DNA from: Gammaproteobacteria bacterium
GTDB taxonomy: Bacteria > Pseudomonadota > Gammaproteobacteria > Steroidobacterales > Rariloculaceae
Reading direction: 5' to 3'
Assembly (NCBI GenBank): GCA_035513215.1
Contig: DATKCK010000029.1
Coordinates: 1,075-65,074, forward strand
Length of the DNA: 64,000 nt
The notes under the pieces are model-generated. The model did not search any database, had not been told where the DNA came from, and saw nothing but the letters and a program-made list of their open reading frames with translations. A program made the translations under genes and the position numbers. Below, in pieces: positions 39,074 to 54,074 of this stretch (position 1 is the stretch's first letter; each line of letters starts with the position of its first letter).

Positions 39074-41482
39074 GTGGGCTCGAGTTCTTTGCGTTGGGCG
39101 GCGTTCGCGTGGGCTTTGTTGCTCGCTGCGGCTCCCGCCGTAGCGGATCCGGTGATCGTGAGCGTTCCGCGTCTTTTCGTGAACGAAGGCGAATCGTACT
39201 CGTACACGATCGTCGTTCGGGACGACGATGACGACGACGACGACGATGACGACGATGACGATGACGACGACGATGACAGGCGTCGATACCGAATCAGCGT
39301 GACTTCCAAGCTGCCGCAGTGGCTCGCATTCGACGGCGACGACACGCTTTCGGGCACGCCCGGCGCGCAGGACTCGGGCAAGTATCGAATCTCGATCGAG
39401 GCAAGGCAAGGTCGCGACAAGGATACGCAGGACTTCACGATCACGGTACGGGACGTCGCGCCGACTCCTCCACCGCAGACGCCACCGCCTCAGCAACCGC
39501 CGCCACCGGCCCCGGCCCCACCGGCTCCGGCCCCACCGGCTCCGGCCCCACCGGCTCCGGCCCCACCGGCTCCGGCCCCACCGCCGCCAACGCCGCCACC
39601 GGCTTCGGCGCCACCAACGCTACCCTCGGCCGATCTCGCGGCCGCCATTGCGGTCTCACCGAATCCGACGCTCGCAGGCTCGCCCGCGAGGTGGACGTTG
39701 ACCGTGCGCAACGTTGGGGGCGCCTACGTCGCGAACATCGGTTTGCGCGCGCGGTTCTCGGGCATCGGGCCCCTTCAGCTCGAGCTCGTCTCTTCGCCGG
39801 CGTGCACGCTGCAACTACTAGGCAACGAGGCTGAGCTTGACTGCCGCCTCGGGCCGCTGGCCGGCGGGCAGGCGCAGTCGATCGAAGTCCTCGGCGGCAG
39901 CCGCGAGGCCGGCGAAGTTCTCGGCGTCGCCACGGTATCGATCGCCGACGCGGCGCCGCTCGATGGCGTGCTCGGCAACAACGAGGCGCGCGCATTGTTG
40001 ACGGTCGCCATGCAGTTGAGCAGCGGTCCCGCGCAACAGCTCCACGCGCCGGGCGGCACGGCATTGGCGGCCGGGGACCTTAACGGCGACGGTCTCGAGG
40101 ACATTGCCGTTGCGACGCGCTTCGGCGAGCGCACGTTGATCTTTTTGAACGGCCGCGATCCGAACGACGAGAACAAGCGCGCGTTCGCGCCGACGCCGCT
40201 GCGTTTCGGTACATCCGCGAACGGCAACGACATTGCCGCCGCCGATCTCGACGGGGACGGCCACCTCGATCTCGTCGTCGCGAACGCCAACGCCGACAAT
40301 CACATCCTCATCAATGACGGCAGTGGCGGGTTCGCGGTGATCGCACTGAGCGGCAGCTCGGCGTCGAGCAACGCCGTGGCACTCGGGGACGTCAATGGCG
40401 ACGGGCTCGTCGACATCGTGTTCGCGAATGCTGGCGCCAACACGGTATACCTCAATCAGGGCGGGAGGACGTTCGTGCGCGGCGCGAGTCTCGGCCAGGC
40501 GCAGGCCAACAGTGTCGATGTCGCGATCGTGGACTTGCTCGGCGATGCTCTGCCCGAGCTCGTGTTCGCGAACCCGGTCGGCGATGCCGCCGTGTACCAG
40601 AGCTCGGGAGGGAGCATCGTGCTCGCTGCTCCGCTGTCGACGGGCCCGACGACCGCGGTTTCCTCCGCGGACTTCGACGGCGACGGGCGCCTCGATCTCG
40701 TCTTCGCACGAAGCGCCGGCGCGGCGCGTGCGGCCTCGAATCTCGTCTACTTGAATCGCTCCACGGCGGTGCCTGTGTTCCTGCTTGCCGATGAGCTCGG
40801 CGGTTCCTCGACCGTCGACGTCGTCGCGGACGACGTCGATCTCGATGGTCTGGATGACGTCGTCGCGATCAACGCCGTCGGGAGCCACCAGCTCTACAAG
40901 AACAGCTCGCTCGGCGGCAGCATTGCGTTCCTGCTGCATCCCGAGCAGTTCGGGGGCGGCGGCGCCGCGGCCTCGGTGGCCGGCAAATTCAATCCAGACG
41001 AGCGCGTCGACATCGCGATCGTCGGCGCCGACCGGATTTCGATCTTCTTCAACGACGGTCGCGGCAATCTCGGCCCCGGCGACGTCGATGCGCCGACGCT
41101 AACGCTCGTGGGTACGCCATCGGTCGCATTTCCGGTCGGCACGCCCTACGTAGACAAGGGTGCGACCGCGATGGATGTCATCGACGGGGACCTGACCGCC
41201 GCGATCGAGGTCGACAATCCCGTCGACGCGAACGTCATCGGCACGTATACCGTTCGCTACGGCGTCGTCGACAGCTCCGGCAACGCGGCCTCGGCAGTCC
41301 ACCGTACCGTCCAGGTGGAGGCGCGTGGCGGTTCCGGCGGCGGCGGTGGCGGAGCGGTTTCGATCGAAATGCTGCTGCTGTTGCTCGCAGCCGCGTCGCT
41401 ACGCCGAGGTCTCGTCCGGGATTGGGCGCAGTGCCGGCACCTGCCAAGGCCCGTTTTTCCGGGATCGCCTAGCGAGATCTGA
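39074..41482 (+). CDS. large secreted FG-GAP/VCBS beta-propeller protein with Ig-like domains and GlyGly-CTERM-like tail
   Basis: 802 aa. Signal peptide; He_PIG/cadherin-like Ig domain interrupted by 19 Asp; Pro/Ala linker; CARDB/DUF11-like domain; seven D-x-[ND]-G-D-G-x-x-D FG-GAP repeats; DUF5011-like Ig domain; and GGSGGGGGGAVSIEMLLLLLAAASLRRG. Confidence 0.8.
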   Translation: MGSSSLRWAAFAWALLLAAAPAVADPVIVSVPRLFVNEGESYSYTIVVRDDDDDDDDDDDDDDDDDDDRRRYRISVTSKLPQWLAFDGDDTLSGTPGAQDSGKYRISIEARQGRDKDTQDFTITVRDVAPTPPPQTPPPQQPPPPAPAPPAPAPPAPAPPAPAPPAPAPPPPTPPPASAPPTLPSADLAAAIAVSPNPTLAGSPARWTLTVRNVGGAYVANIGLRARFSGIGPLQLELVSSPACTLQLLGNEAELDCRLGPLAGGQAQSIEVLGGSREAGEVLGVATVSIADAAPLDGVLGNNEARALLTVAMQLSSGPAQQLHAPGGTALAAGDLNGDGLEDIAVATRFGERTLIFLNGRDPNDENKRAFAPTPLRFGTSANGNDIAAADLDGDGHLDLVVANANADNHILINDGSGGFAVIALSGSSASSNAVALGDVNGDGLVDIVFANAGANTVYLNQGGRTFVRGASLGQAQANSVDVAIVDLLGDALPELVFANPVGDAAVYQSSGGSIVLAAPLSTGPTTAVSSADFDGDGRLDLVFARSAGAARAASNLVYLNRSTAVPVFLLADELGGSSTVDVVADDVDLDGLDDVVAINAVGSHQLYKNSSLGGSIAFLLHPEQFGGGGAAASVAGKFNPDERVDIAIVGADRISIFFNDGRGNLGPGDVDAPTLTLVGTPSVAFPVGTPYVDKGATAMDVIDGDLTAAIEVDNPVDANVIGTYTVRYGVVDSSGNAASAVHRTVQVEARGGSGGGGGGAVSIEMLLLLLAAASLRRGLVRDWAQCRHLPRPVFPGSPSEI
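39221..39277 (+). repeat. (GAC/GAT)19 trinucleotide tract encoding 19 consecutive Asp
   Basis: Read directly from the sequence, in frame with CDS 39074..41482. Confidence 0.9.
39503..39577 (+). repeat. 15-bp tandem repeat CCACCGGCTCCGGCC x5 (4 identical, 1 variant) encoding (PPAPA)n
   Basis: Read directly from the sequence, in frame with CDS 39074..41482. Confidence 0.85.
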
Positions 41483-41549: not shown

Positions 41550-41627
41550 ATACTCGCGCGAGTGTCACCCGCATGTGCGTCAGGAATCCCGCGCACCACC
41601 ACAACCACGACGAAGCGAAATCACCGC

Positions 41628-42380
41628 ATGGAACCGACCGCACTCGAACGTCCCGCCGGCCGCATTCAATCGCCGCTGTGGGGTATTCTGGCCAGCATCC
41701 TGTTCGTCGCCGCTATCGTCGGTGTACTGGTCTATTTCGGCGCCCACGAGCAGATCCTGCGCCTGCTGGAGTGGTTCGACGCCCAGGGGGCGTGGGTGTC
41801 GCTGCTGTTCATCCTGCTCATGGCGGCGGTGGTGGTGCTGGTACTGCCGGGTGTGCTGTTCACCACCGGCGCCGGTTTCGTGTTCGGCGTCATGGAGGGT
41901 TCCATCTATGTGGTGACCGGCACCACCCTGGGGGCGGTGCTGGCCTTCCTCATCGCCCGCTACCTGTTCGGGCAGCGCGCGCGGCGGTTCGTCATGGCCC
42001 GGTCAAAACTCCGCGTGGTCAGCGAGGAGCTCACACCGCATGGATGGAAGATCGTGCTGCTGACACGCCTGATCCCGTTCTTCCCCAGCAAGATCGCCAA
42101 CTATTTTTTCGGGCTGACCCCGTTCTCGCTGCGCGGTTACGCTGCCGGCTCGCTGCTGGGTTTCATCCCCTTCTCGGTGCACAACGTCTATCTCGGCTCC
42201 ATCGTCGCCGACCTCTCCACGCTGGGCGCGCGCGACCAGGGCCGTTCTCCACTGGAATGGACCCTCTACGGCGCCGGCTTCGTGGCCACCGTGGTCGCGG
42301 TCGTCTACCTCAACCGTCTGGCGCGTCGCGCGCTGGCCCGCTATACGGACGCAGGCACGATCGACGAGAATCAACCGTGA
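41628..42380 (+). CDS. TVP38/TMEM64-family (DedA superfamily, SNARE_assoc) membrane protein
   Basis: Start trimmed to MEPTALERPAG. 250 aa. …VLPGVLFTTGAGFVFG… and …LTRLIPFFPSKIANYFFGLT… are typical family motifs. Confidence 0.85.
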   Translation: MEPTALERPAGRIQSPLWGILASILFVAAIVGVLVYFGAHEQILRLLEWFDAQGAWVSLLFILLMAAVVVLVLPGVLFTTGAGFVFGVMEGSIYVVTGTTLGAVLAFLIARYLFGQRARRFVMARSKLRVVSEELTPHGWKIVLLTRLIPFFPSKIANYFFGLTPFSLRGYAAGSLLGFIPFSVHNVYLGSIVADLSTLGARDQGRSPLEWTLYGAGFVATVVAVVYLNRLARRALARYTDAGTIDENQP

Positions 42381-44626
42381 GCTGGATGACGTGGCTGCCC
42401 TGGCGTTTTGTCATTCGCTATATCGCGCGTAAGCAAGGCTTCCTGGATCCCATCGCCCTGTTGGCGCGTCTGCACAGATTTGCCCAACCGTCCGAGGTCG
42501 GTGAACCCATCGAGCTGCTACGCGCCGGCGTGGTGTTTCACGCCCGCGGCCTGAACAACAGCCGCGTCATCCAGCACAACCTGGACTGGGTCTGGCCCTA
42601 CTGGATCGAACGCCAGTTCGATCCGCATGATGTGTCGTTCATCCCGCGCGCCTTTTCCATCACCCACATCAATCTCACGCACCGCAACTGGACCGCGCTC
42701 GGCTATCCGGATTGCCCGGAACTACCGATCGTCGATCCCCGCGGCCTGCTCACACCCATCCTCGATGGCTGGTCGCTGGACGGCTGGCTGCTGGCCGAGG
42801 ACGGCCGCTGCCTGCTGCCCTCGCGGGCCGCCGATTGCCGGCAGCGTCAGGACATGGACCCCGGCGTGCGCATCACCACCGACACAGAAATGGGTGGCCT
42901 GGCCCTGAGCAGCAGCGCCTGGGTGCAGCTCGAATCGGGTGTCCCGGTGTGCAAGCTGCGCCTGCAGGCGCACTCCGACACGCAAGCCTGGCTGGTGCTG
43001 GCGCTACGTCCGTACAACCCGGAGGGCATCAGCTTCATTCATCAGGTCAGCCTGTCGAGTGACCGCAGGGCCTGGCTCGTCGACGATACCCAGCGCGTCG
43101 ACTTCAGCCGCCCCGCCGCGCGGCATCATGCCACTGATTACCGTCACGGGGACGTGTACATACATCTCGAGGATCTCGACGATCAGACCGGCGGCGGCTG
43201 CGACGTGGGCATGGTCACCGCGGCGGCGCTGTTTTCGGTCGCGGCCGGTGAAGCCACGGAGATCACCGCCAGCATCCCGCTCACGGACACACCCGGCCTG
43301 CTCGCCGCCGACGCCTGGAACGCCGCGCAACGCGGGCGCTGCACACTCACTTGCCCGGAGCCGCGTTACCAGTTTCTGTTTGATGCCGCAGTCGCCTCGC
43401 TGATTCTGCATTCACCGGACGACGTCTATCCCGGCCCCTTCACCTACAAGCGCTTCTGGTTTCGCGACGCCGCCTTCATCATCCATGCGCTGCTGTGCGT
43501 CGGCCTCACCGGACGAGCCGAACGCGCGCTGGCGCGCTTCCCGGAACGGCTGACGGCGCTCGGCTATTTCCGCTCCCAGGAAGGCGAGTGGGATGCCAAC
43601 GGCGAAGTGTTGTGGATCCTGCAGCGCTTCTACGCCCTGACCGGAAGGACGGCCTCGTCCGACTGGAATGGGACCATCCAGCGCGGCGCCCGCTGGATCG
43701 TACGCAAGCGCCTCGCCGACGATCTGGATGCGCCCCACGCCGGACTGCTGCCAGCTGGTTTCAGCGCCGAGCACCTGGGCCCTAACGATTACTATTACTG
43801 GGATGATTTCTGGGGCATCGCCGGTCTGCGTGCGGCGGCAGTCATGCTCGCGGATGCGGACCCCGTACACAGCGCGGAATTCGCGCAAGCGGCGGATGAT
43901 TTCGCGGCGGCGGTGCAACGCAGCCTGGCAGCTTGCACGCACCGCCTCGGTCGTCCCGCCATGCCGGCCTCGCCTTATCGCCGTCTGGATGCCGGCGCCA
44001 TCGGCTCGCTGGCGTTCGGCTATCCGGTGCAACTGTGCGCAGCGGACGATCCCCGACTGCTCGATTGCGTCGAGTTCCTGCTCGAGCGCTGTTTTGTGAA
44101 TGGCGCGTTTTACCAGGATATGATCCACTCCGGCCTCAACGCCTACCTGACCCTGCACGTCGCCCAGATCCTGTTACGCGCCAATGACCCGCGCCACCTC
44201 GAACTGATGGACACCGTCGCCGCCCTGGCATCGCCGACCGGCCACTGGCCGGAGGCGATCCATCCGCGCACCGGAGGTGGCTGCATGGGCGACGGTCACC
44301 ATGTGTGGGCTGCCGCCGATTGGGTGCTGATGCTGCGCAACTGTTTCGTGCGCGAGGAAGGCGAACGTCTCATCCTGTGCGCGGGCATCCCGCCGCGCTG
44401 GCTCGAGCACGGCACGCCGATCCGTTTCGGACCCGCGCCGACGGCCTTCGGCGCGGTGTCGATCGAGATCAAAGAGCACCCCGCGTCCGCGCTACGCATC
44501 ACATGGCGTGGCGATTGGCATCACAGCGCACCGCCCCTCGAGGTGCGCCTGCCTGGATACAAGGTGGTTAGCGTCACTGATGACAGCACGACCGTGGTCC
44601 CGGACAAAAAGGAAACTGTTGCTTGA
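42377..44626 (+). CDS. uncharacterised glycoside-hydrolase-like protein with C-terminal GH15/GDE-type (alpha/alpha)6 domain
   Basis: The GTG at 42377 overlaps the upstream stop (GTGA); the ATG at 42386 is an alternative. 749 aa. …TYKRFWFRDAAFIIHAL…, …EWDANGEVLW…, …YYYWDDFWG… and …GHHVWAAADWV… resemble six-hairpin glucoamylase-like catalytic domains. The N-terminal half is unassigned. Confidence 0.7.
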   Translation: MSWMTWLPWRFVIRYIARKQGFLDPIALLARLHRFAQPSEVGEPIELLRAGVVFHARGLNNSRVIQHNLDWVWPYWIERQFDPHDVSFIPRAFSITHINLTHRNWTALGYPDCPELPIVDPRGLLTPILDGWSLDGWLLAEDGRCLLPSRAADCRQRQDMDPGVRITTDTEMGGLALSSSAWVQLESGVPVCKLRLQAHSDTQAWLVLALRPYNPEGISFIHQVSLSSDRRAWLVDDTQRVDFSRPAARHHATDYRHGDVYIHLEDLDDQTGGGCDVGMVTAAALFSVAAGEATEITASIPLTDTPGLLAADAWNAAQRGRCTLTCPEPRYQFLFDAAVASLILHSPDDVYPGPFTYKRFWFRDAAFIIHALLCVGLTGRAERALARFPERLTALGYFRSQEGEWDANGEVLWILQRFYALTGRTASSDWNGTIQRGARWIVRKRLADDLDAPHAGLLPAGFSAEHLGPNDYYYWDDFWGIAGLRAAAVMLADADPVHSAEFAQAADDFAAAVQRSLAACTHRLGRPAMPASPYRRLDAGAIGSLAFGYPVQLCAADDPRLLDCVEFLLERCFVNGAFYQDMIHSGLNAYLTLHVAQILLRANDPRHLELMDTVAALASPTGHWPEAIHPRTGGGCMGDGHHVWAAADWVLMLRNCFVREEGERLILCAGIPPRWLEHGTPIRFGPAPTAFGAVSIEIKEHPASALRITWRGDWHHSAPPLEVRLPGYKVVSVTDDSTTVVPDKKETVA

Positions 44627-45912
44627 ACATCCTGATCCTCACCAACACCTTCACGCCGCATGTGGGCGGCGTGGCGCGCTCGGTGGAGGCGTTCAGCGCG
44701 GAATACCGTAAACGCGGACACCGCGTACTGGTCGTGGCGCCCGAATTTCCCGACATGTCGCTGGATGAAGTCGACGTGGTGCGCATCAACGCGATCCAAA
44801 ATTTCAACGACAGTGACTTCTCGGTCGCGCTGCCGATACATCCACAGCTCACCGATTCCATCGACGCCTTCGGCGCCGACATCGTGCACTCCCAGCATCC
44901 CTTTCTGCTGGGTATCACTGCGCTGCGCCTGGCGCGCCACCGGGGACTGCCGCTGGTATTCACGCATCACACCCTGTATGACCAATATACGCACTATGTC
45001 CCCGGCGACTCGTCCGCCCTGAAACGTTTCGCGATCGAACTCGCCACCCGCTATGCTAATCTCTGCGATCAGGTCTTCGCCCCCAGCGAGAGCATCCAGG
45101 CGCTGTTGCAGCAACGCGGCGTCACCACGCCGATTGCCGTAGTGCCCACCGGCGTGCGCCTGGAAAATTTTGCACAGGGAGATGGACCGGCCTTTCGCAG
45201 GCAGATGGGCATTCCGGAAACTGCCTTCGTGGTCGGCCATCTGGGCCGCCTGGCGCCGGAAAAGAACCTGGAATTTCTGACTCAGGCGGTCGCTGATTTC
45301 ATCAACCGCAACAGCCGTGCGCATTTCGTCTTGATCGGCACCGGCCCGTCCGAAGACGCCATCCGGAGTACTTTTGCCCGCGCCGGCTTAGAATCGCAGT
45401 TACACATTGCCGGCATTCTGCAGCAGCAACCGTTGGCCGACGCCCTGCACGCGATGGACGTGTTCGCCTTCGCGTCCACGAGCGAGACTCAAGGCATGGT
45501 GCTGACGGAGGCCATGGCGGCCGGTCTGCCGGTCGTTGCCCTGGACGCTCCCGGCGCCCGTGAAGTAGTCAGCGACGGGCTCAACGGCCGCCTGCTGACG
45601 GAGGCATCGTCCGCGACCTTCGGCGCCGCCTTGGCGTGGGTGGCCGGACTGGCACCGGAGCAATTGCGCGACGTGCAACAAGCCGCACTCGCCACCGCCG
45701 CGGCCTTTTCAATACCCCGATCGGCGGACAAGTCCCTGGCCTGCTACGCAGCGCTCGAATCTAAATCGACTATTTTTGATGCGAACAGAGATGAGCATGG
45801 CTGGGAGGATGTCATGACATTTATAAAAACAGAGTGGAATATCCTGAAAACTATGGCCCGAGCGAGCGACGCGGCGCTCGGCACTCACCTGTTTCCCGAA
45901 CAGGAAGACTGA
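44623..45912 (+). CDS. GT4-family (GT-B, group 1) glycosyltransferase
   Basis: The TTG start overlaps the upstream stop (TTGA). 429 aa. N-terminal NILILTNTFTPHVGGVARSV and the E-x7-E region …STSETQGMVLTEAMAAGLPVV…. Confidence 0.9.
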   Translation: MNILILTNTFTPHVGGVARSVEAFSAEYRKRGHRVLVVAPEFPDMSLDEVDVVRINAIQNFNDSDFSVALPIHPQLTDSIDAFGADIVHSQHPFLLGITALRLARHRGLPLVFTHHTLYDQYTHYVPGDSSALKRFAIELATRYANLCDQVFAPSESIQALLQQRGVTTPIAVVPTGVRLENFAQGDGPAFRRQMGIPETAFVVGHLGRLAPEKNLEFLTQAVADFINRNSRAHFVLIGTGPSEDAIRSTFARAGLESQLHIAGILQQQPLADALHAMDVFAFASTSETQGMVLTEAMAAGLPVVALDAPGAREVVSDGLNGRLLTEASSATFGAALAWVAGLAPEQLRDVQQAALATAAAFSIPRSADKSLACYAALESKSTIFDANRDEHGWEDVMTFIKTEWNILKTMARASDAALGTHLFPEQED

Positions 45913-45965
45913 TGCTGCACATATACCATTCACCACCCACGGCCGCGGACGAGGCAGACTAGCCC

Positions 45966-48383
45966 ATGCTTGGCCGAATCGAGACCCAACTACGGCGCCT
46001 GCGCCGCAACCTCAGTCGCAGTATCTGGCTTTCGCGTCTGCTGCGTCTGCCGGTGTCGGAGGGAGCGCCGACGCGGCCGGGGTTGATCATGATCCAGACC
46101 GACGGACTGTCGCAGCCGCAGTTCGAACGCGCCCTGGATCGAGGTGAACTGCCGTTCCTGCGCCGGCTGATCCAGCGCGAACACTATCAGCTCCATGCCC
46201 ACTATTCGGGCCTGCCGGCGACGACGCCCGCGGTCCAGGCCGAGCTGTTCTATGGTGTCAAAGGTGCCGTCCCGGCATTTTCCTTCAGAGACCATGAATC
46301 GCGGCGAATCGTGCGCATGTACGAACCGGACACGGCGGCGCGTGTCGAGGCGCTGCTCGCAGGCAACGGCAACGAGGCACTGCTCAAAGAGGGCAGCGCC
46401 TACTCTGACAACTTCACCGGCGGTGCGGCGGAGTCGCATTTCTGTCCATCATCGATGGGTTGGGGCCCGACATTGCGCGCGGCCAATCCGCTGGTGATGC
46501 TGGCGTTTCTGATCGCCAATTTCTACAGTTTTCTGCGCGTTGCTGTCTTGTTGTTGATGGAGTTGGGCCTGGCGCTGGTCGATTTCGTGCGTGGGATCCG
46601 GCGCGGACACAACTTCCTTGCGGAACTGAAATTCATACCGGCGCGGGTCGGCATCTCGATCCTGCTGCGCGAATTCTGTGTGATCGGCGGCAAGATCGAC
46701 ATCGCTCGCGGTCTGCCCATTATTCATATCAACTTCATCGGCTACGACGAACAGTCGCACCGCCGCGGTCCGCGCTCACTGTTTGCCCACTGGACCCTGA
46801 AAGGGATCGACGACGCCATCGCCCGGTTATGGCGCGCCGCCAATCATTCCGCATGGCGACATTACGAACTCTGGATCTACTCCGATCATGGACAGGCCCA
46901 CACCCGGCCCTACCATCACGTTCAAGGCTATACCCTGGCAGAGGCCGTGACCGCGGCGCTCGAAAAATCGGGCGCCAATACAGTCGAAATTCGCACCCAA
47001 GGCGTGGGCAGTATTCAGACCCAGCGGGTGCGTTTCCTCGGCGGCAAACGGATTCAGCACTTGTTCTCGGTGGGTATCAATGGCGAGGAAGCGCATGAAC
47101 ACCAACCCGTGCTTACCGCCCTGGGACCCGTGGGCCATGTCTATGCGCCGCAGCAAATGACTGGCGATGAACGAGATTTTGTCGCCCGTGAATTGGCGCG
47201 CACGCATAAGGTACCAATCGTGCTCAATGTGGAGGCCCCGGGCACGCTGTGCGCCCGCACCGATGCCGGTGAATTCCGTTTGCCGCAGGATCGTGCCGCT
47301 TTGTTCGGAGAGCGACATCCATTCCTCGATTCGATTGGCGAGGATCTGGTGCGCCTCTGCGAACACCCGGATGCTGGCGACTTCGTTGTGCTTGGCTGGC
47401 GTGAAGGCGTGATACCGATGACCTTCGCCGAGGAGAACGGCTCCCACGCCGGTGCGACGCCCGAAGAGACCAACGGTTTTGCGCTGCTGCCCGTGGACGC
47501 TCCTTTGGCGGCACGTGAACATGCGTACTTACGTCCCATGGACCTGCGCATTGCGGCGCTGCAGCATCTGGAGCGACAGGATCGTAAACCTGTCGCAACA
47601 CGCATACGTGCCGTCGCCACACCGACGGATACGCTGCGGGTCATGACCTACAATGTGCACAGTTGCATCGGCATGGACGGCAAGCTCGACGCCCAGCGCA
47701 TCGCCCGGGTGATTGCCCGCGGCAGACCGGATGTGGTGGCGTTGCAGGAGCTGGACGTGGGCCGCGCCCGCACCGATGGCATGAACCAGGCGCATTTGAT
47801 CGCCCGTTATCTGGAAATGGAGTTTCATTTCCATCCAACCCTGCATCTCGAGGAAGAACGCTATGGCGATGCCATCCTGACGAATCTGCCACAGCGCCTG
47901 GTCAAGGCCGGCGCGCTGCCGGGGCTCGCCGGCAAACGGCACCTGGAACCGCGCGGAGCGCTCTGGGTTGCCATCGAACTGCATGGTAAAGAGATTCAGA
48001 TCATCAATACTCACCTGGGATTGTTCCCGCGGGAACGCATGGCGCAGGGTGAAGCGCTGCTCGGCAGCGACTGGCTGGCACACGAACAGTGCCGGGAGCC
48101 GGTGATCCTGTGCGGCGACTTCAACGCCCTGCCGTCATCGTCGGTGTGCCGCCGGCTCGCTGGGCAACTCAAGGACGTTCAAACCGAGGTGCAGCACCAC
48201 CGCCCTAAAGGCACCTATTCCGGACGCTTTCCGACGGTGCGCATTGACCACATCTACATCAGCCCCGGACTCGAAGTAACCGGCATCGAAGTCCCGGCCT
48301 CGGAAATGGCGCGCGTCGCCTCCGACCATCTGCCGCTGGTCGCGGAGATGCGCATCCCTGAACAGCGCAACCTGCGGACATGA
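45966..48383 (+). CDS. two-domain phosphoesterase: alkaline-phosphatase-superfamily (NPP/type I phosphodiesterase-like) N-domain + endonuclease/exonuclease/phosphatase (EEP) C-domain
   Basis: 805 aa. AlkP-type ligands IMIQTDGLS, GLPATTPAVQ (Thr nucleophile), YDEQSHRRGP and IYSDHGQ. A hydrophobic stretch covers about residues 175-215. EEP motifs are MTYNVH, ALQELD, CGDFN and ASDHLP. Confidence 0.85.
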   Translation: MLGRIETQLRRLRRNLSRSIWLSRLLRLPVSEGAPTRPGLIMIQTDGLSQPQFERALDRGELPFLRRLIQREHYQLHAHYSGLPATTPAVQAELFYGVKGAVPAFSFRDHESRRIVRMYEPDTAARVEALLAGNGNEALLKEGSAYSDNFTGGAAESHFCPSSMGWGPTLRAANPLVMLAFLIANFYSFLRVAVLLLMELGLALVDFVRGIRRGHNFLAELKFIPARVGISILLREFCVIGGKIDIARGLPIIHINFIGYDEQSHRRGPRSLFAHWTLKGIDDAIARLWRAANHSAWRHYELWIYSDHGQAHTRPYHHVQGYTLAEAVTAALEKSGANTVEIRTQGVGSIQTQRVRFLGGKRIQHLFSVGINGEEAHEHQPVLTALGPVGHVYAPQQMTGDERDFVARELARTHKVPIVLNVEAPGTLCARTDAGEFRLPQDRAALFGERHPFLDSIGEDLVRLCEHPDAGDFVVLGWREGVIPMTFAEENGSHAGATPEETNGFALLPVDAPLAAREHAYLRPMDLRIAALQHLERQDRKPVATRIRAVATPTDTLRVMTYNVHSCIGMDGKLDAQRIARVIARGRPDVVALQELDVGRARTDGMNQAHLIARYLEMEFHFHPTLHLEEERYGDAILTNLPQRLVKAGALPGLAGKRHLEPRGALWVAIELHGKEIQIINTHLGLFPRERMAQGEALLGSDWLAHEQCREPVILCGDFNALPSSSVCRRLAGQLKDVQTEVQHHRPKGTYSGRFPTVRIDHIYISPGLEVTGIEVPASEMARVASDHLPLVAEMRIPEQRNLRT

Positions 48384-48537: not shown

Positions 48538-49605
48538 ATGCAACGCGCGATTCACTGCTGCCTGATGCGCGGCGGGAGCTCCAAAGGGCTCTACTTCGAG
48601 GCTGCGAACCTGCCGGTGGACGTGGTCGAGCGGGACCGCATTCTCGTGGCGGCGATGGGCTCGGACCAGCGGCAGATCGACGGTGTCGGCGGCGCGCATC
48701 CCCTGACGAGCAAGGTCGCGATCGTGAGTCGTGCGGCCGAGGATTCGGCCGACGTCGATTATCTGTTCGCGCAGGTCGTCGTCGGCGAGGGCCGCGTCGA
48801 TACGACGCCGAACTGCGGCAACATGCTCGCGGCCGTCGGCCCGTTCGCGATCGAGGCGGGAATGATCGCGGCCGGCGACGGCGAGACGCGCGTGCGCGTA
48901 CGCATGCTGAACACGGGCAACCTCTGCGAGCTCGTCGTGCAGACGCCCGGCGGGCGCGTAACCTACGAAGGCAGCGCCAGGATAGACGGCGTGCCGGGAA
49001 CGGCCGCGCCGATCGTCTGCAACTATCTCGATGTCGCGGGCTCCGTCTGCGGCTCGCTGCTGCCGACCGGCAATGCGATCGATATCGTCGACGGCATCGA
49101 GGTCACCTGCATCGACAACGGCATGCCCGTCGTCGTGCTGCGGGCGCGTGACCTCGGCATCACTGGCCACGAGACGCGCGAGGTGCTCGATGGCAACGAG
49201 ACGCTCAAGCAAAGGCTCGAGTCGATCCGATTGCAGATCGGGCCGAAGATGAATCTCGGCGACGTCACGAGCAAGGTCGTTCCGAAAATGAGCCTGATCT
49301 CGGCGCCGCGGGCCGGCGGGCATGTCAACACGCGCACGTTCATTCCTCACGATTGCCACGCCGCGATCGGCGTACTCGGCGCCGTCTCGGTAGCGACTGC
49401 CTGCATCGTCCCCGGCACCGTGGCCGAAGGCATCGCCACCGTTCCCGAAGGGTCGATCAAGCAGATGTCGGTCGAGCATCCGTCGGGCGAGTTCTCGGTG
49501 ACGCTGGAGGTCGGCGGCACGCCCGACGCGCCCGAGGTGCTGAAGGCGGGACTGCTACGCACCGCGCGGCTCATCATGCGAGGCGAGGTATTCGTGGTTC
49601 AGTGA
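48538..49605 (+). CDS. ligU: PrpF-superfamily 4-oxalomesaconate tautomerase (GalD/LigU-like)
   Basis: 355 aa. …CLMRGGSSKG…, …QIDGVGGAHPLTSKVAIV…DVDYLFAQV… and …CIDNGMPVV… closely follow my memory of GalD/LigU. Confidence 0.85.
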   Translation: MQRAIHCCLMRGGSSKGLYFEAANLPVDVVERDRILVAAMGSDQRQIDGVGGAHPLTSKVAIVSRAAEDSADVDYLFAQVVVGEGRVDTTPNCGNMLAAVGPFAIEAGMIAAGDGETRVRVRMLNTGNLCELVVQTPGGRVTYEGSARIDGVPGTAAPIVCNYLDVAGSVCGSLLPTGNAIDIVDGIEVTCIDNGMPVVVLRARDLGITGHETREVLDGNETLKQRLESIRLQIGPKMNLGDVTSKVVPKMSLISAPRAGGHVNTRTFIPHDCHAAIGVLGAVSVATACIVPGTVAEGIATVPEGSIKQMSVEHPSGEFSVTLEVGGTPDAPEVLKAGLLRTARLIMRGEVFVVQ

Positions 49606-50291
49606 GGATTGCACTCGCATTCGATGTCTACGGCACGCTGATCGACACGGCCGGCGTCGTCGCTGAGCTGCGCGCGCTCGTCGGCAATCGTGCCGAGGCC
49701 TTCTCGGCACTCTGGCGCGAGAAGCAGCTCGAGTACTCGTTCCGGCGCGCGCTGATGCGCCGCTACGCGAAGTTCTCCGTCTGTGTCAGCGAGTCGCTCG
49801 ATTATGTCTCGGCCCGTCTCGACGTCTCACTGGCGGACGAGGACAGGGCGCGTGTGCTCGGCGTTTTCGGCGCCCTGCCGGCTTTCGACGATGTCGACTA
49901 TTGCCTGGCCCGGCTCGACATCGGCGAGTTCGGGCTCTATGCGTTGTCGAACGGGTCGCGCGACGCCGTCGAGAAACTGCTCGAGAACGCCGGGATCAAC
50001 GAGCGGTTCGCCGATATCGTCAGCGTCGACGAGATCGAGACGTTCAAGCCGGATCCAGCCGTCTACGAGCATTTCCTTAAGCGGGCCGGTGTGGACGGCA
50101 GCCACGCGTGGCTGATCTCGGGGAACCCTTTCGACGTGATCGGCGCCCAGTCGGCCGGGATGAACGGCGTCTGGGTCAAGCGGTCTCTCGATGCGGTCTA
50201 CGATCCCTGGGGCGTCGAGCCGACGCTGACGGCTTCGAGTCTTGCCGAGCTGGGTCCGAAGCTGCAGGAGTTCCTCGCGCGAAGCCGCTGA
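49602..50291 (+). CDS. HAD-superfamily hydrolase (type II haloacid dehalogenase-like)
   Basis: The GTG at 49602 overlaps the ligU stop (GTGA). VRIALAFDVYGTLID carries the DxYGT nucleophile motif. 229 aa. Confidence 0.75.
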   Translation: MRIALAFDVYGTLIDTAGVVAELRALVGNRAEAFSALWREKQLEYSFRRALMRRYAKFSVCVSESLDYVSARLDVSLADEDRARVLGVFGALPAFDDVDYCLARLDIGEFGLYALSNGSRDAVEKLLENAGINERFADIVSVDEIETFKPDPAVYEHFLKRAGVDGSHAWLISGNPFDVIGAQSAGMNGVWVKRSLDAVYDPWGVEPTLTASSLAELGPKLQEFLARSR

Positions 50292-50294
50292 AGC

Positions 50295-51548
50295 TCATCG
50301 AGCTTCTGCTCCGGCATCCGCGCGCGGCAGGATCAGCACGACGAGCCAGCAGGCCGCGGTGCAGGCTGCGCCGATCGAGACCAGCGAGTCGAACGCGCGT
50401 TCCGCGCCGAGGCGCGCGGCCCACGACTCGTACCAGCCGCCGCCAACGCGGCTGCCGAGCGAGTAGCTCAGGTTGCTTAGCGCCATCAGCAAGGCGAACA
50501 CCGTGCCGGCCGATGCCGGCGGGCAATAGCGCGCGGCGAGATCGAGCTGCGCGAGCGTCGTGAACATGTAGGCGAAACCGACCGCGCCCGCGATGACGAG
50601 CGCCGAAAGCCAGCCCGACAGCGCAAAGTAGCTGAGGCTCGAGATCAGCATCGCGACGAGAGAGATATGAATGATCGACCGCACGCGGAAGCGCGGCGAG
50701 AGCCAGCCATAGACGAAGCAGCCGACGATCGCGGCGGCGCTGCCGACCGAGTACATCGTGCCGACGACGGTCTCGCTGATGCCGAGCGCGCCGGTCAGGT
50801 GGACATAGAGCACGTCGGCCGAGAACGGGTTGAAGTTGAGCAGGATCAGAAAGAGCGCAACGGGCAGAATATAGCCTGCGCGGATCGCACCGAGCGTCTG
50901 TCTCAGCGTCGCTCGAGCCTGGCCGGCATCGAGCCGTGCCGGCGGCTCGCGATCGAGGACGCGCCAGGCCACGAAAAAGCTCAGCAACGAGAACGCCCCG
51001 GCCAGTACGAACCCGAGCTGCTGCGCGCCGCGCTCGCTCAGCAGGCCGCCGGCAACACCGGTCAGAATGCCGGCCGCATAGAGCGACGCCCACTGCACGG
51101 ACTGAAGTCGACCCGTCAGCCCGAGCGGCTGGCCCTTTTCGACCATCAGGGCATCCGCGACGACATCGGCGAGCGCGACGCCGGCGCAGGGCACGAGCAG
51201 CACGAGTGTCAGCGTGCCGACGGATCCGGGCGGAAGCTCGAGCGTTCCCGCGAGCATGAGGCCGATTCCCGCCATCAGCGTCGCAAGCAGCAGGTAGCTC
51301 CTGCGTCTCGATCCCAGGATCGGAACGAAATCGCTCAGGAGCCCGAGCAGCGGCTTCAGATACCAGGGCAGGCCGACGATGAGCATGAAGCCCGCGATCT
51401 CATCGGCGCCGAGACCCCAGCTCCTGAGCAGCGATCGCGTCGGTTGCGCGATCAGTCCCTCGGTTGGCTCGCCGACGCCCTGGACGAAATAGATGAAACC
51501 GAAGAGCAGCGCGAGCCGGGATGCCGGTGAACGCGCTGCGACGCTCAC
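50295..51548 (-). CDS. MFS transporter, folate-biopterin transporter (BT1)-like
   Basis: 417 aa with 12 TM helices. N-terminal …FGFIYFVQG…PWYLKPLLGLLSD… pattern. Confidence 0.8.
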   Translation of the reverse strand: MSVAARSPASRLALLFGFIYFVQGVGEPTEGLIAQPTRSLLRSWGLGADEIAGFMLIVGLPWYLKPLLGLLSDFVPILGSRRRSYLLLATLMAGIGLMLAGTLELPPGSVGTLTLVLLVPCAGVALADVVADALMVEKGQPLGLTGRLQSVQWASLYAAGILTGVAGGLLSERGAQQLGFVLAGAFSLLSFFVAWRVLDREPPARLDAGQARATLRQTLGAIRAGYILPVALFLILLNFNPFSADVLYVHLTGALGISETVVGTMYSVGSAAAIVGCFVYGWLSPRFRVRSIIHISLVAMLISSLSYFALSGWLSALVIAGAVGFAYMFTTLAQLDLAARYCPPASAGTVFALLMALSNLSYSLGSRVGGGWYESWAARLGAERAFDSLVSIGAACTAACWLVVLILPRADAGAEAR

Positions 51549-51567
51549 TCGCGGTTATCCCGATCGA

Positions 51568-53004
51568 TCACCGTGCGACGCTGATGACTTCGGGCTCCAT
51601 GTAGGACTTGAGCCCGAGATGCGAGTACTGCCGGCCGAGCCCGGATTCCTTCGCGCCGCCGAAAGGCACGATGGCCGAGGTCGCGCGATGCTGATTGACC
51701 CAGGCCGTGCCGACCTCGAGTCGCGCGGCGATGGCCTTGCCGCGCTCGATGTCGGACGTCCAGACCGATCCCGACAGGCCGAATCGAGTGTCGTTCGCGC
51801 GCCTTATCGCATCGTCGAGATCGGAGTACTTCAGGATCGGCACGACGGGTCCGAATTGCTCCTCGGCGACGAGCCGGCTGTCGTCGCTGACGTCGGTGAC
51901 GAGCGTCGGCGGAATGAAGTAGCCGGGCGTATCGGGAATCTCGCCGCCGCAAAGAATCCTCGCGCCGCTCGCCTTCGTGTCCTCGATGAGCTCGCGTACC
52001 TTGTCGTACTGCATCTTGTTCTGCAAGGGTCCGAGTGTCGTCGCAGGATCGAGTCCGCTGCCGACTCTCGCTTTCGACGCTTCCTCGACGAGCGCATCGC
52101 AGAGCGCGTCGTAGATGCTCTCATGGGCGTAGATGCGCTTGATCGCCATGCAGACCTGGCCCGAGTTGACGAACGAGGCGAAGAAAACCTTCTTTGCGAT
52201 CGCCTTCGGGTCGACGTCCTCAAGAATGATCGCCGGATCGTTGCCGCCGAGCTCGAGCGTCAGGCGCTTCATCGTGCCGGCGGCGCTTGCAAAGACCTTC
52301 TTGCCGGTCGTAACGGAACCGGTGAACGAGATCTTGTCGATGCCGGGGTGCTCCGTCATCAGCCGGCCGAGCTCGTCGCCGCCGGCGAGCACGTTAGCGA
52401 CGCCGGCCGGCACGAGCCGAGCGAGCAGCTCGCCGAGCTTCAGCGTCGTCAGCGGTGTGTAGGGCGAGGGCTTCAGGATGACGGTGTTGCCGGTGTAGAG
52501 CGCGGAGACGAGCGGCCCGAGCGCGAGGTTCACGGGCGCGTTCCACGGCGTGATGATGCCGACGACGCCGAGCGGCCGGTAATGGAGCTCAATAAGGCGC
52601 TCGTCGTTGTCGACGAGCGTCTCGATCGGGAGCTCGATTGCCACCATGCCTTCCGATTGCGCGGCGCCGCGGTCGATCTCGGCGACCGACTGGCCGAGTG
52701 GCTTGCCTTGCTCGAGCGTCAGGAGCTCGGCCAGCGCGTCCTGATGCTCGCGCAGCGCCCCCGCCAGGCGCCGGATGACCTCGGCGCGGGCGGCGAAGCC
52801 GATATCCCGCCAGGCCGGCGCGGCACGGCGCGCGGCCGCGACGGCGCGTTCGAGCTCGGGCTCACCGGCCGCCGGGCAGCGCGCGAACACGCTGCCCGTT
52901 GCCGGATTAACGACGTCGAGCGTGCTCTCGCCTCCGGTCAGCTTGCCGTCGATGAGCAGGGAGAAATCCGTGCGCACGGGATCGGTGGCGGCGGCCTTGA
53001 CCAT
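51568..53004 (-). CDS. NAD(P)-dependent aldehyde dehydrogenase
   Basis: Start trimmed to MVKAAATDP (ATG 53004, GGAGAAG RBS). ELGGNDP, catalytic …GQVCMAIKR…, and EEQFGPV. Confidence 0.9.
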   Translation of the reverse strand: MVKAAATDPVRTDFSLLIDGKLTGGESTLDVVNPATGSVFARCPAAGEPELERAVAAARRAAPAWRDIGFAARAEVIRRLAGALREHQDALAELLTLEQGKPLGQSVAEIDRGAAQSEGMVAIELPIETLVDNDERLIELHYRPLGVVGIITPWNAPVNLALGPLVSALYTGNTVILKPSPYTPLTTLKLGELLARLVPAGVANVLAGGDELGRLMTEHPGIDKISFTGSVTTGKKVFASAAGTMKRLTLELGGNDPAIILEDVDPKAIAKKVFFASFVNSGQVCMAIKRIYAHESIYDALCDALVEEASKARVGSGLDPATTLGPLQNKMQYDKVRELIEDTKASGARILCGGEIPDTPGYFIPPTLVTDVSDDSRLVAEEQFGPVVPILKYSDLDDAIRRANDTRFGLSGSVWTSDIERGKAIAARLEVGTAWVNQHRATSAIVPFGGAKESGLGRQYSHLGLKSYMEPEVISVAR

Positions 53005-53119
53005 AGGTAAGCTTCTCCGGGGATCGTTCTGAATGCAGAAAGGCTGTGTTAACCTGTTTGGCGAGAATAATACATCAACGATTCTCGCATTCCCCTCGAT
53101 CGATCCTGCGGAGACTTGC

Positions 53120-54061
53120 ATGAAGATTGTCATGGTTGGCCAGGGCGCGTTTGGCCAGAAGCATTTGGACGGACTCAAGAACATCGACGGCGTCGAGGTC
53201 GTAAGCCTCGCGGGCGGCAAGCTCGAGTCGGTCGAGGCCGTCGCGCAGAAGTACGGCATCGGGCACTGGACGTCCGATCTGGCCGAGGCGCTCGAGCAGC
53301 CCGGCGTCGATGCGGCGATCATTGCGTCGCCGACGCAGATGCACGCGGCTCAGGCGATTCAGTGCCTCGAGGCCGGCAAGCACGTCGAGATCGAGATTCC
53401 GATTGCCGATTCACTCGCGGATGCGAAGGCGATCGCAAAGGCGCAGGAGAAGTCGGGCGTGATCGCGATGGCGGGCCACACGCGGCGATTCAATCCGTCA
53501 CATCAATGGGTGCACAACAGGGTCGTCGCCGGGGAGCTCAAGCTCCAACATCTCGTCGTTCAGACATTTTTCTTTCGCCGCAAGAACATCAACCTCGAGG
53601 GCAAGCCGAGGAGCTGGACCGATCATTTGCTCTGGCATCATGCCTGCCATACGGTCGATCTCTTCCAGCATCAGACCGGCGAGACGGCATCCGATGTCCA
53701 CGCGTTCGAAGGGCCGACGCATCCGGAGCTCGGGATCGCGCTGGACATGAGCATCGGCATGAAGGTGCCTTCCGGCGCCACCTGCACGCTCGCGCTCTCG
53801 TTCAACAACGACGGGCCGCAGGGCACGTTCTTCCGCTACATCTGCGACAATGGCACCTATATCGCGCGCTATGACGATCTCGTCGACGGCAAGGAGAATC
53901 CGATCGATCTGTCGGGCGTCGCCGTGTCGATGAACGGTATCGAGCTTCAGGATCGCGAGTTCATTGCCGCGATTCGCGAGGGCAGGGAGCCGAACGGCAG
54001 CGTCGCGCAGGTCCTGCCGGCGATGGAGACCCTGCATCGTCTGGAGCAATGCCTTGGGTGA
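53120..54061 (+). CDS. ligC: Gfo/Idh/MocA oxidoreductase, 4-carboxy-2-hydroxymuconate-6-semialdehyde dehydrogenase (LigC)-like
   Basis: Start trimmed to MKIVMVGQGAFGQKHLDGLKNIDGVEVV. Long stretches match remembered Sphingobium LigC (…GHTRRFNPSHQ…, …PRSWTDHLLWHHA…, …FRYICDNGT…IARYDDLV…, …NGIELQDREFIAAIREGREPN…). Confidence 0.8.
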   Translation: MKIVMVGQGAFGQKHLDGLKNIDGVEVVSLAGGKLESVEAVAQKYGIGHWTSDLAEALEQPGVDAAIIASPTQMHAAQAIQCLEAGKHVEIEIPIADSLADAKAIAKAQEKSGVIAMAGHTRRFNPSHQWVHNRVVAGELKLQHLVVQTFFFRRKNINLEGKPRSWTDHLLWHHACHTVDLFQHQTGETASDVHAFEGPTHPELGIALDMSIGMKVPSGATCTLALSFNNDGPQGTFFRYICDNGTYIARYDDLVDGKENPIDLSGVAVSMNGIELQDREFIAAIREGREPNGSVAQVLPAMETLHRLEQCLG

Positions 54062-54074
54062 GATTGCCGTCTGT

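Follow-up and report, generated by a model that had tools for sequence, protein, structure and literature searches.

In Pseudomonas aeruginosa, the gpgSDF operon encodes a family 4 glycosyltransferase (GT4), a deacetylase and a YbhN-type putative flippase, which together give glucosaminyl-phosphatidylglycerol (GlcN-PG); the hexSDF genes of Clostridioides difficile are analogous to it (PMC12713373). Here we describe a four-gene cassette found at 41628-48383 of a 64-kb stretch of gammaproteobacterial DNA (contig DATKCK010000029.1; hereafter the window), which is proposed to be, in kind, a lipid glycosylation-and-flipping operon and contains an apparently new enzyme family. All four genes are on the forward strand (open reading frame (ORF) listing and translation of the window). 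Gene A (41628-42380, 250 aa) encodes a polytopic membrane protein with a VTT domain (DedA superfamily, TVP38/YdjX type); gene B (42377-44626, 749 aa, GTG start) a putatively cytoplasmic protein with a predicted fold of the glucoamylase/phosphorylase type, from a family for which no model exists; gene C (44623-45912, 429 aa, TTG start) a GT4 enzyme (GT-B, retaining); and gene D (45966-48383, 805 aa) a two-domain phosphoesterase, in which an alkaline-phosphatase (AlkP) fold domain of family PF01663 is joined to an endonuclease/exonuclease/phosphatase (EEP) domain. We found no description of this cassette, or of its components together, in the literature (the literature on glycolipid hydrolases likewise gave nothing relevant), in agreement with the initial annotation of the window, made from the sequence and its ORFs, which knew of no characterised system of this composition.

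The genes are closely packed: the stop codon of A overlaps the start codon of B (GTGA at 42377-42380), the stop codon of B overlaps the start codon of C (TTGA at 44623-44626) and 53 nt separate C from D. These overlaps, the gap and the common strand had been reported in the initial annotation and are all exact on re-reading of the raw sequence; A, B, C and D are predicted to be translationally coupled. The start sites of A, B and C are supported by their homologues, which begin at the same residues (the consensus for B is MSWMKWLPW, and A and C can be aligned from residue 1). A 1017-aa ORF at 41573-44626 was rejected as a gene, as it is merely the frame of B extended upstream in high-GC DNA, over gene A, which is coded in another frame.

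Conservation of the cassette

We surveyed 160 homologous loci (designated by L-numbers), 80 of them from genomes (neighbours mapped by tblastn) and 80 from metagenomes (a scan seeded with distant relatives of B); 59 genome loci and 40 metagenome loci have enough flanking sequence to be considered complete. A lack of conserved co-occurrence had been named beforehand as an observation that would refute the initial annotation. The four families are in fact clustered across many phyla: the 160 loci show at least six gene orders, V-B-C-D (V being the VTT gene), B-V-C-D, B-C-D-V, C-D-V-B, B-C-V and Dc-V-B-C-Dn (in which D is split), as well as V-B, B-C and B-C-D. The identities of the four proteins to those of the window co-vary (r = 0.95 for B/C, 0.98 for B/D, 0.96 for C/D and 0.86 for B/A), so the four genes travel as a unit. 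With 160 clustered loci, several orders and co-varying identities, the arrangement is far beyond chance. There is no fifth gene conserved beside the four in the neighbourhoods of the mapped loci.

Among the complete genome loci, a VTT gene is found in 58 of 59, C in 33 and D in 32; the corresponding numbers for the complete metagenome loci are 23, 37 and 28 out of 40. The metagenome loci encode B proteins with 46-81% identity, and in them B-C is near-universal and B-C-D common; where they lack a match to A, a divergent VTT protein of ∼216 aa (PF09335, E 3.9e-8) is often encoded after D. The complete set A-B-C-D is found at 60-84% identity in Thiobacillus, Azoarcus, Thiohalophilus, Haliea, Rheinheimera, Arsukibacterium and Sedimenticola, and also in Desulfuromonadales, Desulfomicrobium and Nitrospinae; the cassette is present in Lentisphaeria (in the order B-A-C-D) and in Riflebacteria as well. 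In Marinobacter, Marinimicrobium and Saccharospirillum impatiens only A-B is present, and the genes that come next are unrelated. B is the hub of the cassette, with C as its most constant partner, D as a frequent one and B-C as the most widespread pair, because B-C and B-C-D occur without a VTT gene and A-B occurs without C and D; the DedA/VTT protein thus does not hold the central role that the initial annotation had given it. Partial cassettes also include A-B-D without the GT4 gene in a metagenome-assembled genome of Saccharospirillum (L031), and A-B-C with no D within 6.7 kb downstream in Thiohalophilus thiocyanatoxydans DSM 16326 (L013); both are natural 'knock-outs', useful for comparative lipidomics.

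Genes encoding more distant relatives of B (35-53% identity) are found alone, or overlapping a GT4 gene that follows, or with a gene for a small membrane protein before them. In one locus (L088:2759-9923), the gene for a B homologue with 42% identity has no GT4, VTT or D gene around it; it is close to genes for a glucokinase, a sigma-54 activator and a major facilitator superfamily (MFS) transporter, and the end of the contig carries a genuine GH15/TREH_N gene. This homologue may act on a soluble glucoside.

The G+C content of the window is ∼65%. At third codon positions (GC3), C (0.74) and D (0.72) are lower than A (0.84), B (0.79) and the flanking genes (0.80-0.87), which fits a foreign origin for at least part of the cassette. 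Together with the cross-phylum identities of 70-80%, the lower GC3 of C and D indicates horizontal spread of the cassette. On plasmids we found no close homologue, just 'discoidin domain' matches of 24-27% identity.

Protein families and membrane partners

B has no match in Pfam, NCBIfam or PDB by single-sequence and profile searches, and thus appears to represent a new family. The family is large: 4874 proteins match at E ≤ 1e-5 among the candidates scored, clustering at 50% identity gives 2232 clusters at E < 1e-3 and 462 at E < 1e-30, and relatives of B were found in at least 593 matched stretches of a collection of species-representative genomes. Having no representative in Pfam, NCBIfam or PDB, it would probably define a new CAZy family.

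The AlphaFold2 model of B, built from 35 homologues, is of moderate quality (predicted local distance difference test (pLDDT) 68.8, predicted template modelling score 0.71; pLDDT is below 50 for residues 31-109). In it, an extremely conserved N-terminal region of 130 residues precedes a beta-sandwich, which is followed by a twelve-helix (alpha/alpha)6 barrel and by a second beta-sandwich at the C-terminus. The N-terminal region (residues 1-130; 42377-42766, + strand) has a basic amphipathic start (WLPWRFVIRYIARKQGF), then the most conserved stretch of B, with dense invariant columns (alignment A1), and is poorly modelled; the barrel comprises residues 330-657 (43364-44347, + strand). Foldseek places the model close to several glycoside hydrolase (GH) families: GH94 (4zle, E 1.7e-12), GH15 (1ug9, E 4.5e-12; 1lf6, E 2.7e-10) and GH65 (1h54), all in the range of E 1e-12 to 1e-9 with a TM-score of about 0.45-0.5, so that GH94 and GH65 are as good as GH15; GH116 (5bvu) is weaker, at E 2.9e-8. 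Phosphorylases, e.g. 2-O-alpha-glucosylglycerol phosphorylase, are among these neighbours.

Comparison at the sequence level is less telling. B has no match to PF00723 (GH15) in Pfam at E < 0.01, and its distant relatives reach just E 0.05; hhalign gives a probability of 0.3% against the Aspergillus niger glucoamylase, and a non-significant 1.8% (E 0.028) against a five-member GH15 profile that was built from plasmid genes. In an alignment of 59 B-family sequences going down to 27% identity (A3), twelve barrel residues are invariant: R363, D364, W405, D406, E465, H466, D476, H584, Y590, E626, H642 and W644. The segment YhrfWfRDA of B faces YHAVWARD of the glucodextranase 1ug9 in a sub-significant profile alignment (that with 1lf6 is likewise sub-significant), and its WDD (containing D476) stands opposite the WEE of GH15 in the non-significant hhalign result (E 0.028). 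In the model, the invariant residues appear to sit in the five inter-helix loops that bear the GH15 signature residues, which would put D476 at the position of the GH15 acid (loop between helices 5 and 6) and E626 at that of the base (loop between helices 11 and 12). The motif-based reading of B as a simple divergent GH15 protein was, with no support from hhalign, downgraded to a likeness of 'fold and topology only'. B has neither a transmembrane segment nor a signal peptide.

C is a two-domain GT-B protein (PF13439, E 7e-36, 124 bits; PF00534, E 6.5e-29, 101 bits) without a signal peptide. Its top NCBIfam model is Mgs, the alpha-monoglucosyl-diacylglycerol (DAG) synthase (131 bits over residues 1-327; cut-off 400), followed by the N-acetylglucosaminyl-phosphatidylglycerol (GlcNAc-PG) synthase of the GpgS family (104 bits over residues 1-338; cut-off 480) and by MshA (101 bits over residues 86-377; far below the cut-off); judged by these scores, C is not an orthologue of Mgs or of GlcNAc-PG synthase. 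The two lipid-acceptor models match from residue 1 onwards, so that the likeness includes the N-terminal, acceptor-side domain of C. Its relatives in PDB include PimA, MshA and BshA, and some of its orthologues are named 1,2-diacylglycerol 3-alpha-glucosyltransferase by the Joint Genome Institute (JGI). Weak matches to GlgA and Glyco_transf_5 are seen as well, and C passes the PF20706 'GT4-conflict' model (30 bits, cut-off 26), beneath far stronger generic GT4 matches.

In D, the match to PF01663 (38.6-39.9 bits, cut-off 23) is limited to about residues 254-328 of an AlkP-superfamily domain that spans residues 38-540 (46077-47585, + strand). D46-G47, T87, H265 and H308 of this domain are invariant, and D261 and D307 are found in at least 90% of the sequences (alignment A2). 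From the order of the motifs and what is known of nucleotide pyrophosphatase/phosphodiesterase (NPP) enzymes, D46, T87, D261, H265, D307 and H308 may form an NPP-type set of metal ligands and nucleophile. The N-terminal domain alone matches no PDB sequence, and the top 50 Foldseek matches of the D model are confined to the EEP domain. Inside the AlkP-like domain is a helical hairpin (residues 166-248; 46461-46709, + strand), with a hydropathy of 1.6-2.1 over residues 172-208, long helices at 175-184, 186-213 and 217-248 in the model and a hydrophobic consensus that is kept in A2; it is a candidate monotopic membrane anchor and the sole hydrophobic hairpin among B, C and D. No signal peptide is found in D.

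The C-terminal EEP domain of D (residues 556-796; 47631-48353, + strand) matches PF03372 over residues 560-788 (82.4 bits, cut-off 24.5, E 4.9e-23), with the canonical residues N563, E595, H683, D718, N720, D761, H762, D787 and H788 invariant (A2). It aligns end to end with Escherichia coli YbhP (BLASTP E 2e-15; 0.002 for exonuclease III, XthA), its Foldseek neighbours are 4ruw, Nocturnin, Tdp2 and CNOT6L, and the NCBIfam model PRK05421 gives 30.5 bits, under the cut-off of 144. In four loci (L010, L021, L051 and L118) D is split, with a gene for the EEP part (33-35% identical to the EEP domain of the window) upstream of the VTT gene and one for the AlkP-like part after the GT4 gene. The two phosphoesterase domains therefore appear to be independent modules that became fused in the lineage of the window.

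A matches PF09335 (VTT; 83.9 bits, cut-off 33.9, E 1.7e-23) and has at least three to four hydrophobic segments by hydropathy, i.e. several transmembrane segments. Among E. coli proteins, BLASTP finds YdjX at E 3e-18 and YdjZ at E 1e-13, and YqjA just at 0.024; because it is much nearer to YdjX and YdjZ than to YqjA, A is assigned to COG0398 (TVP38/TMEM64, YdjX/YdjZ) rather than to COG0586. NCBIfam UptA gives a weak match (E 3.7e-4). A published analysis makes the case that the COG0398 subfamily, with YdjZ as a structural example, resembles scramblases and probably does not flip undecaprenyl phosphate, the activity itself being a proposal (PMC10127716). The families that the initial annotation had named for A (TVP38/DedA), C (GT4) and D (AlkP with EEP) are all recovered by these profile matches; its GH15-like label for B is borne out in the fold (AlphaFold2 and Foldseek), while the significant sequence match to PF00723 that it would imply is missing.

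Different membrane proteins can partner B, usually a VTT protein and otherwise one of several unrelated small ones. In three loci (L165, L166 and L171) the N-terminus of B carries an in-frame fusion to a GtrA/DPMS transmembrane domain (PF04138; E 8e-18, 3e-15 and 4e-13, respectively), which joins straight onto the conserved basic amphipathic start of B. In L116, a gene for a DUF2062 membrane protein precedes B at a distance of 19 nt, and one for a 145-aa protein with four transmembrane segments lies immediately upstream of B in L086 and L125 (an alpha/beta hydrolase gene follows the GT4 gene in L086). As the VTT protein is replaced by other polytopic proteins, in some cases by a true fusion, B is likely to work at the membrane together with a translocator-type protein.

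Genes of lipid metabolism accompany B in some of these variants. Four loci encode, between B and C, a 485-aa protein with a phosphopantetheine-binding (acyl carrier protein, ACP) part and a PlsC-type acyltransferase part, whose top NCBIfam model is acyl-ACP:phospholipid O-acyltransferase. The cluster at L166:2482-11777 encodes on one strand a patatin phospholipase, an unknown 125-aa ORF, an AsmA/DUF748-like protein, the GtrA::B fusion (908 aa), the ACP-acyltransferase, the GT4 enzyme and a DUF3108 protein, then a histidine kinase and a response regulator. This type of cluster (also L165, L171 and L120) looks like a fuller lipid synthesis and export pathway around B-C.

Proposed function and alternatives

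We give an even chance to the proposal that the cassette handles a lipid-linked glycoside at the membrane, on the cytoplasmic face of the inner membrane. The cytoplasmic side is suggested by the lack of signal peptides in B, C and D. The lipid enzymes of the variant clusters, the likeness of C to lipid-acceptor GT4 enzymes, the hairpin of D and its link to YbhP make a membrane lipid the preferred candidate for the molecule that is glycosylated, a glycerolipid being the simplest case. The catalytic steps of A, B, C and D are all ones that we infer. D, held on the membrane by its hydrophobic hairpin, would act through its two metallo-phosphoesterase domains, cleaving or dephosphorylating either the head group of a phospholipid or a lipid intermediate that carries phosphate; C would transfer an alpha-linked sugar from a nucleoside diphosphate sugar to the lipid acceptor; A (or the GtrA partner) would shift the lipid between leaflets; and B, bound to the flippase-type protein at the membrane, would hydrolyse the alpha-glycoside or pass it onward, and so determine how much of the glycolipid there is or which final form it takes. 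The specific chemistry, removal of a head group and then glycosylation of DAG, is speculative. Retaining GT4 enzymes make alpha-glycosides and GH15-type enzymes cleave them, so the pairing of a GT4 enzyme with a GH15-fold protein would be anomerically consistent. We hold only tentatively, and as rather less than probable, that B is a membrane-tethered GH-fold enzyme, complexed with a scramblase or flippase, that hydrolyses or transglycosylates a previously undescribed bacterial (phospho-)glycolipid made by C and D.

Several observations weigh against a lipid-linked glycoside. C is far under the cut-offs for Mgs and GlcNAc-PG synthase and scores nearly as high against MshA, which has a soluble acceptor, as against the lipid-acceptor models. 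The structural neighbours of the EEP domain of D are enzymes acting on nucleotides or nucleic acids, and PF01663 includes cytoplasmic nucleotide phosphodiesterases. The model of B is moderate (pLDDT 68.8) and its putative catalytic residues have no significant mapping to GH15. About 17 of the 40 complete metagenome loci have no detected VTT gene nearby, 10 of them being plain B-C-D, and 25 of the 59 complete genome loci, chiefly from Marinobacter, lack C and D around the A-B pair (V-B or V-V-B); since such A-B-only and B-C(-D)-only lineages exist, the four steps are not obligatorily linked. Nor did a regulatory signal emerge: an Rfam scan of the locus gave no riboswitch, a promoter/terminator scan gave background numbers only, a Pho-box scan of 69 orthologous upstream regions gave best sites of 7-11 out of 14 positions, not above chance and inconsistent in position (with the E. 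coli consensus, from which the boxes of these taxa may differ), and an alignment of the same 69 regions contains no conserved block, motif or promoter.

If the tentative reading of B as a membrane-tethered enzyme is true, a DedA protein of COG0398 (TVP38-type) would for the first time be placed in a biochemical setting. DedA/TVP38-type proteins are near-universal, and the cassette, with its three enzymes and the GtrA fusions, would be a route to the lipid substrate of COG0398. The hosts include organisms that cycle sulfur, nitrogen and metals (Thiobacillus, Nitrotoga, Thiohalophilus, Desulfuromonas, Marinobacter and Nitrospinae), in which a novel membrane lipid could matter for intact-polar-lipid biomarkers and for envelope physiology.

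A special case of the lipid-linked proposal is a phosphate-sparing lipid renovation, in which D would produce DAG, C would turn it into glycosyl-DAG, A would scramble the lipid and B would reverse the process on repletion. The initial annotation had reasoned along these lines, by analogy with PlcP-Agt in phosphate-starved bacteria; its lipid-substrate theme has gained independent support (the models of C, the YdjX type of A, the GtrA fusions, the lipid genes, and the hairpin and YbhP-like EEP domain of D), and its phosphate-starvation analogy none. The Mgs model at the top for C, the JGI names of its orthologues and the hairpin of D agree with such a renovation, and the PF01663 and EEP families both hold phospholipase-C-type enzymes. 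Against it stand the 69 upstream regions without an above-chance Pho box or a conserved promoter, the lack of a riboswitch and of recurrent pho/pst genes among the cassette neighbours, and the A-B pair that Marinobacter retains alone; an enzyme for the reverse reaction would also be unexpected as the most conserved hub. We consider it unlikely. Still less probable is the handling of a sugar linked to polyprenyl phosphate, with undecaprenyl phosphate or a related carrier of envelope glycans as the lipid; here the membrane partner would flip the carrier, D would dephosphorylate its pyrophosphate or phosphate form and B would release or transfer the sugar. The initial annotation had offered polyprenyl phosphate as an option for A, which the GtrA::B fusions keep alive, as the GtrA family is tied to translocation of polyprenyl-phosphate sugars (PMC12992685); the YdjX-type subfamily of A, argued not to flip undecaprenyl phosphate (PMC10127716), weakens it. 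The UptA match of A and the phosphorylases among the fold neighbours of B, which act on glycosyl phosphates, are in its favour, but the acyltransferase, patatin and YbhP/ClsB links indicate glycerolipids. Polyprenyl phosphate, moreover, is rarely the acceptor of a GT4 enzyme.

Similarly improbable, to our mind, is a cycle of a soluble glycoside (a compatible solute or a phosphorylated sugar), made as a phosphate by C, dephosphorylated by D and degraded by B, with A exporting it or being unrelated. The sucrose, mannosylfructose and GlcNAc-inositol pathways likewise combine a GT4 synthase, a phosphatase and a hydrolase, MshA is the third-best model for C, the fold neighbours of B include 2-O-alpha-glucosylglycerol phosphorylase, genes for a glucokinase and an MFS transporter are near B in L088, and many hosts are halophilic or alkaliphilic. 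The carriers also include freshwater ones (Thiobacillus, Azoarcus and Nitrotoga), however, and B comes coupled with flippase-type membrane proteins or in fusion with them, lipid enzymes are present in the variant clusters, D with its two domains and hairpin is unlike a simple haloacid dehalogenase (HAD) phosphatase, and DedA proteins are not known as sugar transporters. Turnover of an intracellular alpha-glucan or trehalose, in which a GT4 synthase would be paired with a glucoamylase or trehalase of the GH15 type and A and D would be passengers, would account for the GH15 glucoamylase and the glucodextranase among the top fold matches of B and for the weak GlgA and Glyco_transf_5 matches of C; it is very unlikely, as the divergence of A and D follows that of B and C (r 0.86-0.98), so that neither is a passenger, further genes for glycogen or trehalose are not conserved in the neighbourhood, and the membrane-protein fusions do not fit the scheme. 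The least probable of the readings, and one we hardly credit, is a horizontally spread anti-phage or conflict system. It would draw on the 'GT4-conflict' match of C, the nuclease-type EEP domain of D, the patchy cross-phylum distribution at 65-85% identity and the GC3 of C and D, which is under that of the flanking genes; but the PADLOC models match none of A, B, C and D, the PF20706 match lies under much stronger generic GT4 matches, the flanks are ordinary metabolic ones, and a check of these flanks in the window found no integrase, tRNA or flanking repeats as signs of a mobile element.

The flanking genes encode functions of ordinary metabolism or a surface protein and are unrelated to the cassette. 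Upstream (39074-41482, + strand) is a gene for an 802-aa surface protein with FG-GAP/VCBS and Ig-like repeats and an N-terminal signal-like segment; its C-terminus, a run of glycines followed by a hydrophobic helix and a basic tail (GGSGGGGGGAVSIEMLLLLLAAASLRRG), resembles a C-terminal sorting signal. The genes downstream (48538-54929) look like an aromatic-acid set of the gallate/protocatechuate 4,5-cleavage type, encoding a 4-oxalomesaconate tautomerase (533 bits, above the cut-off), a BT1/MFS transporter, an aldehyde dehydrogenase, a GFO/IDH/MocA oxidoreductase and an Amidohydro_2 protein. The FG-GAP protein and the tautomerase were considered as members of the cassette and rejected, as neither is conserved beside B.

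Comparison with known systems

The gpgSDF operon shares with the cassette a cytoplasmic GT4 enzyme acting on a membrane lipid, a second cytoplasmic modifying enzyme and a small polytopic protein proposed as a flippase, and the GpgS family is the second-best NCBIfam model for C. The parts are different ones, however: C is not a GpgS orthologue by score (104 bits against 480), the modifying enzyme is a predicted GH15-fold protein instead of a deacetylase, the membrane protein is of the VTT/DedA (or GtrA) type instead of YbhN/UPF0104, and the AlkP-EEP protein has no counterpart in gpgSDF. With PlcP-Agt, the cassette has in common that a phosphoesterase and a lipid glycosyltransferase are encoded together. 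PlcP has a calcineurin-type metallophosphoesterase fold, and the cassette differs further by the absence of detected Pho regulation, by two more conserved parts (B and the VTT protein) and by having B, not the phosphoesterase, as its hub.

Two further systems resemble the cassette in coupling an enzyme to a flippase-type protein. In E. coli K-12 (L172:2543-5498), ybhP overlaps clsB by 4 nt and clsB overlaps ybhN by 1 nt, so that an EEP protein of the YbhP type, with which the EEP domain of D aligns end to end, is coupled to a phospholipid head-group enzyme and a flippase-type protein; YbhP is a single-domain protein, though, and its partner is a cardiolipin synthase of the phospholipase D type rather than a GT4 or GH-like enzyme. 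YbhN is of the same family as GpgF of the GlcN-PG operon, and this link of an EEP protein to lipids in E. coli parallels the cassette. GtrA/GtrB and the three-component systems of lipid-linked glycosylation likewise combine a small GtrA protein of four transmembrane segments with a cytoplasmic sugar enzyme, as the GtrA::B fusions of three loci do; those systems use a GT2 enzyme on polyprenyl phosphate and a periplasmic GT-C enzyme, whereas here the glycosyltransferase is a GT4 and the fused enzyme has a predicted glycosidase fold.

B itself is closest to the glucoamylases, glucodextranases and trehalases of GH15 and to the GH65 and GH94 phosphorylases, with which it shares an N-terminal beta-sandwich and an (alpha/alpha)6 barrel. 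By the topology of the model it may also share W-x-R-D where helix 2 begins, and its invariant carboxylates may lie in the loops (between helices 5 and 6 and between helices 11 and 12) that bear the acid and base of GH15. It differs from them in having no significant similarity to PF00723 or to any PDB chain, in WDD instead of WEE, and in its extra, highly conserved N-terminal region and its coupling or fusion to membrane proteins. B also recalls GBA2 (GH116), a membrane-associated glycolipid hydrolase and transglycosylase of the cytosolic face, also built of a beta-sandwich and an (alpha/alpha)6 domain and also among the fold matches of B. GBA2 is a retaining beta-glucosidase without sequence similarity to B, and its fold match is weaker than those of GH15, GH65 and GH94; if the role proposed here for B is true, the system would be a bacterial counterpart of the eukaryotic, GBA2-type turnover of glycolipids at the cytosolic face.

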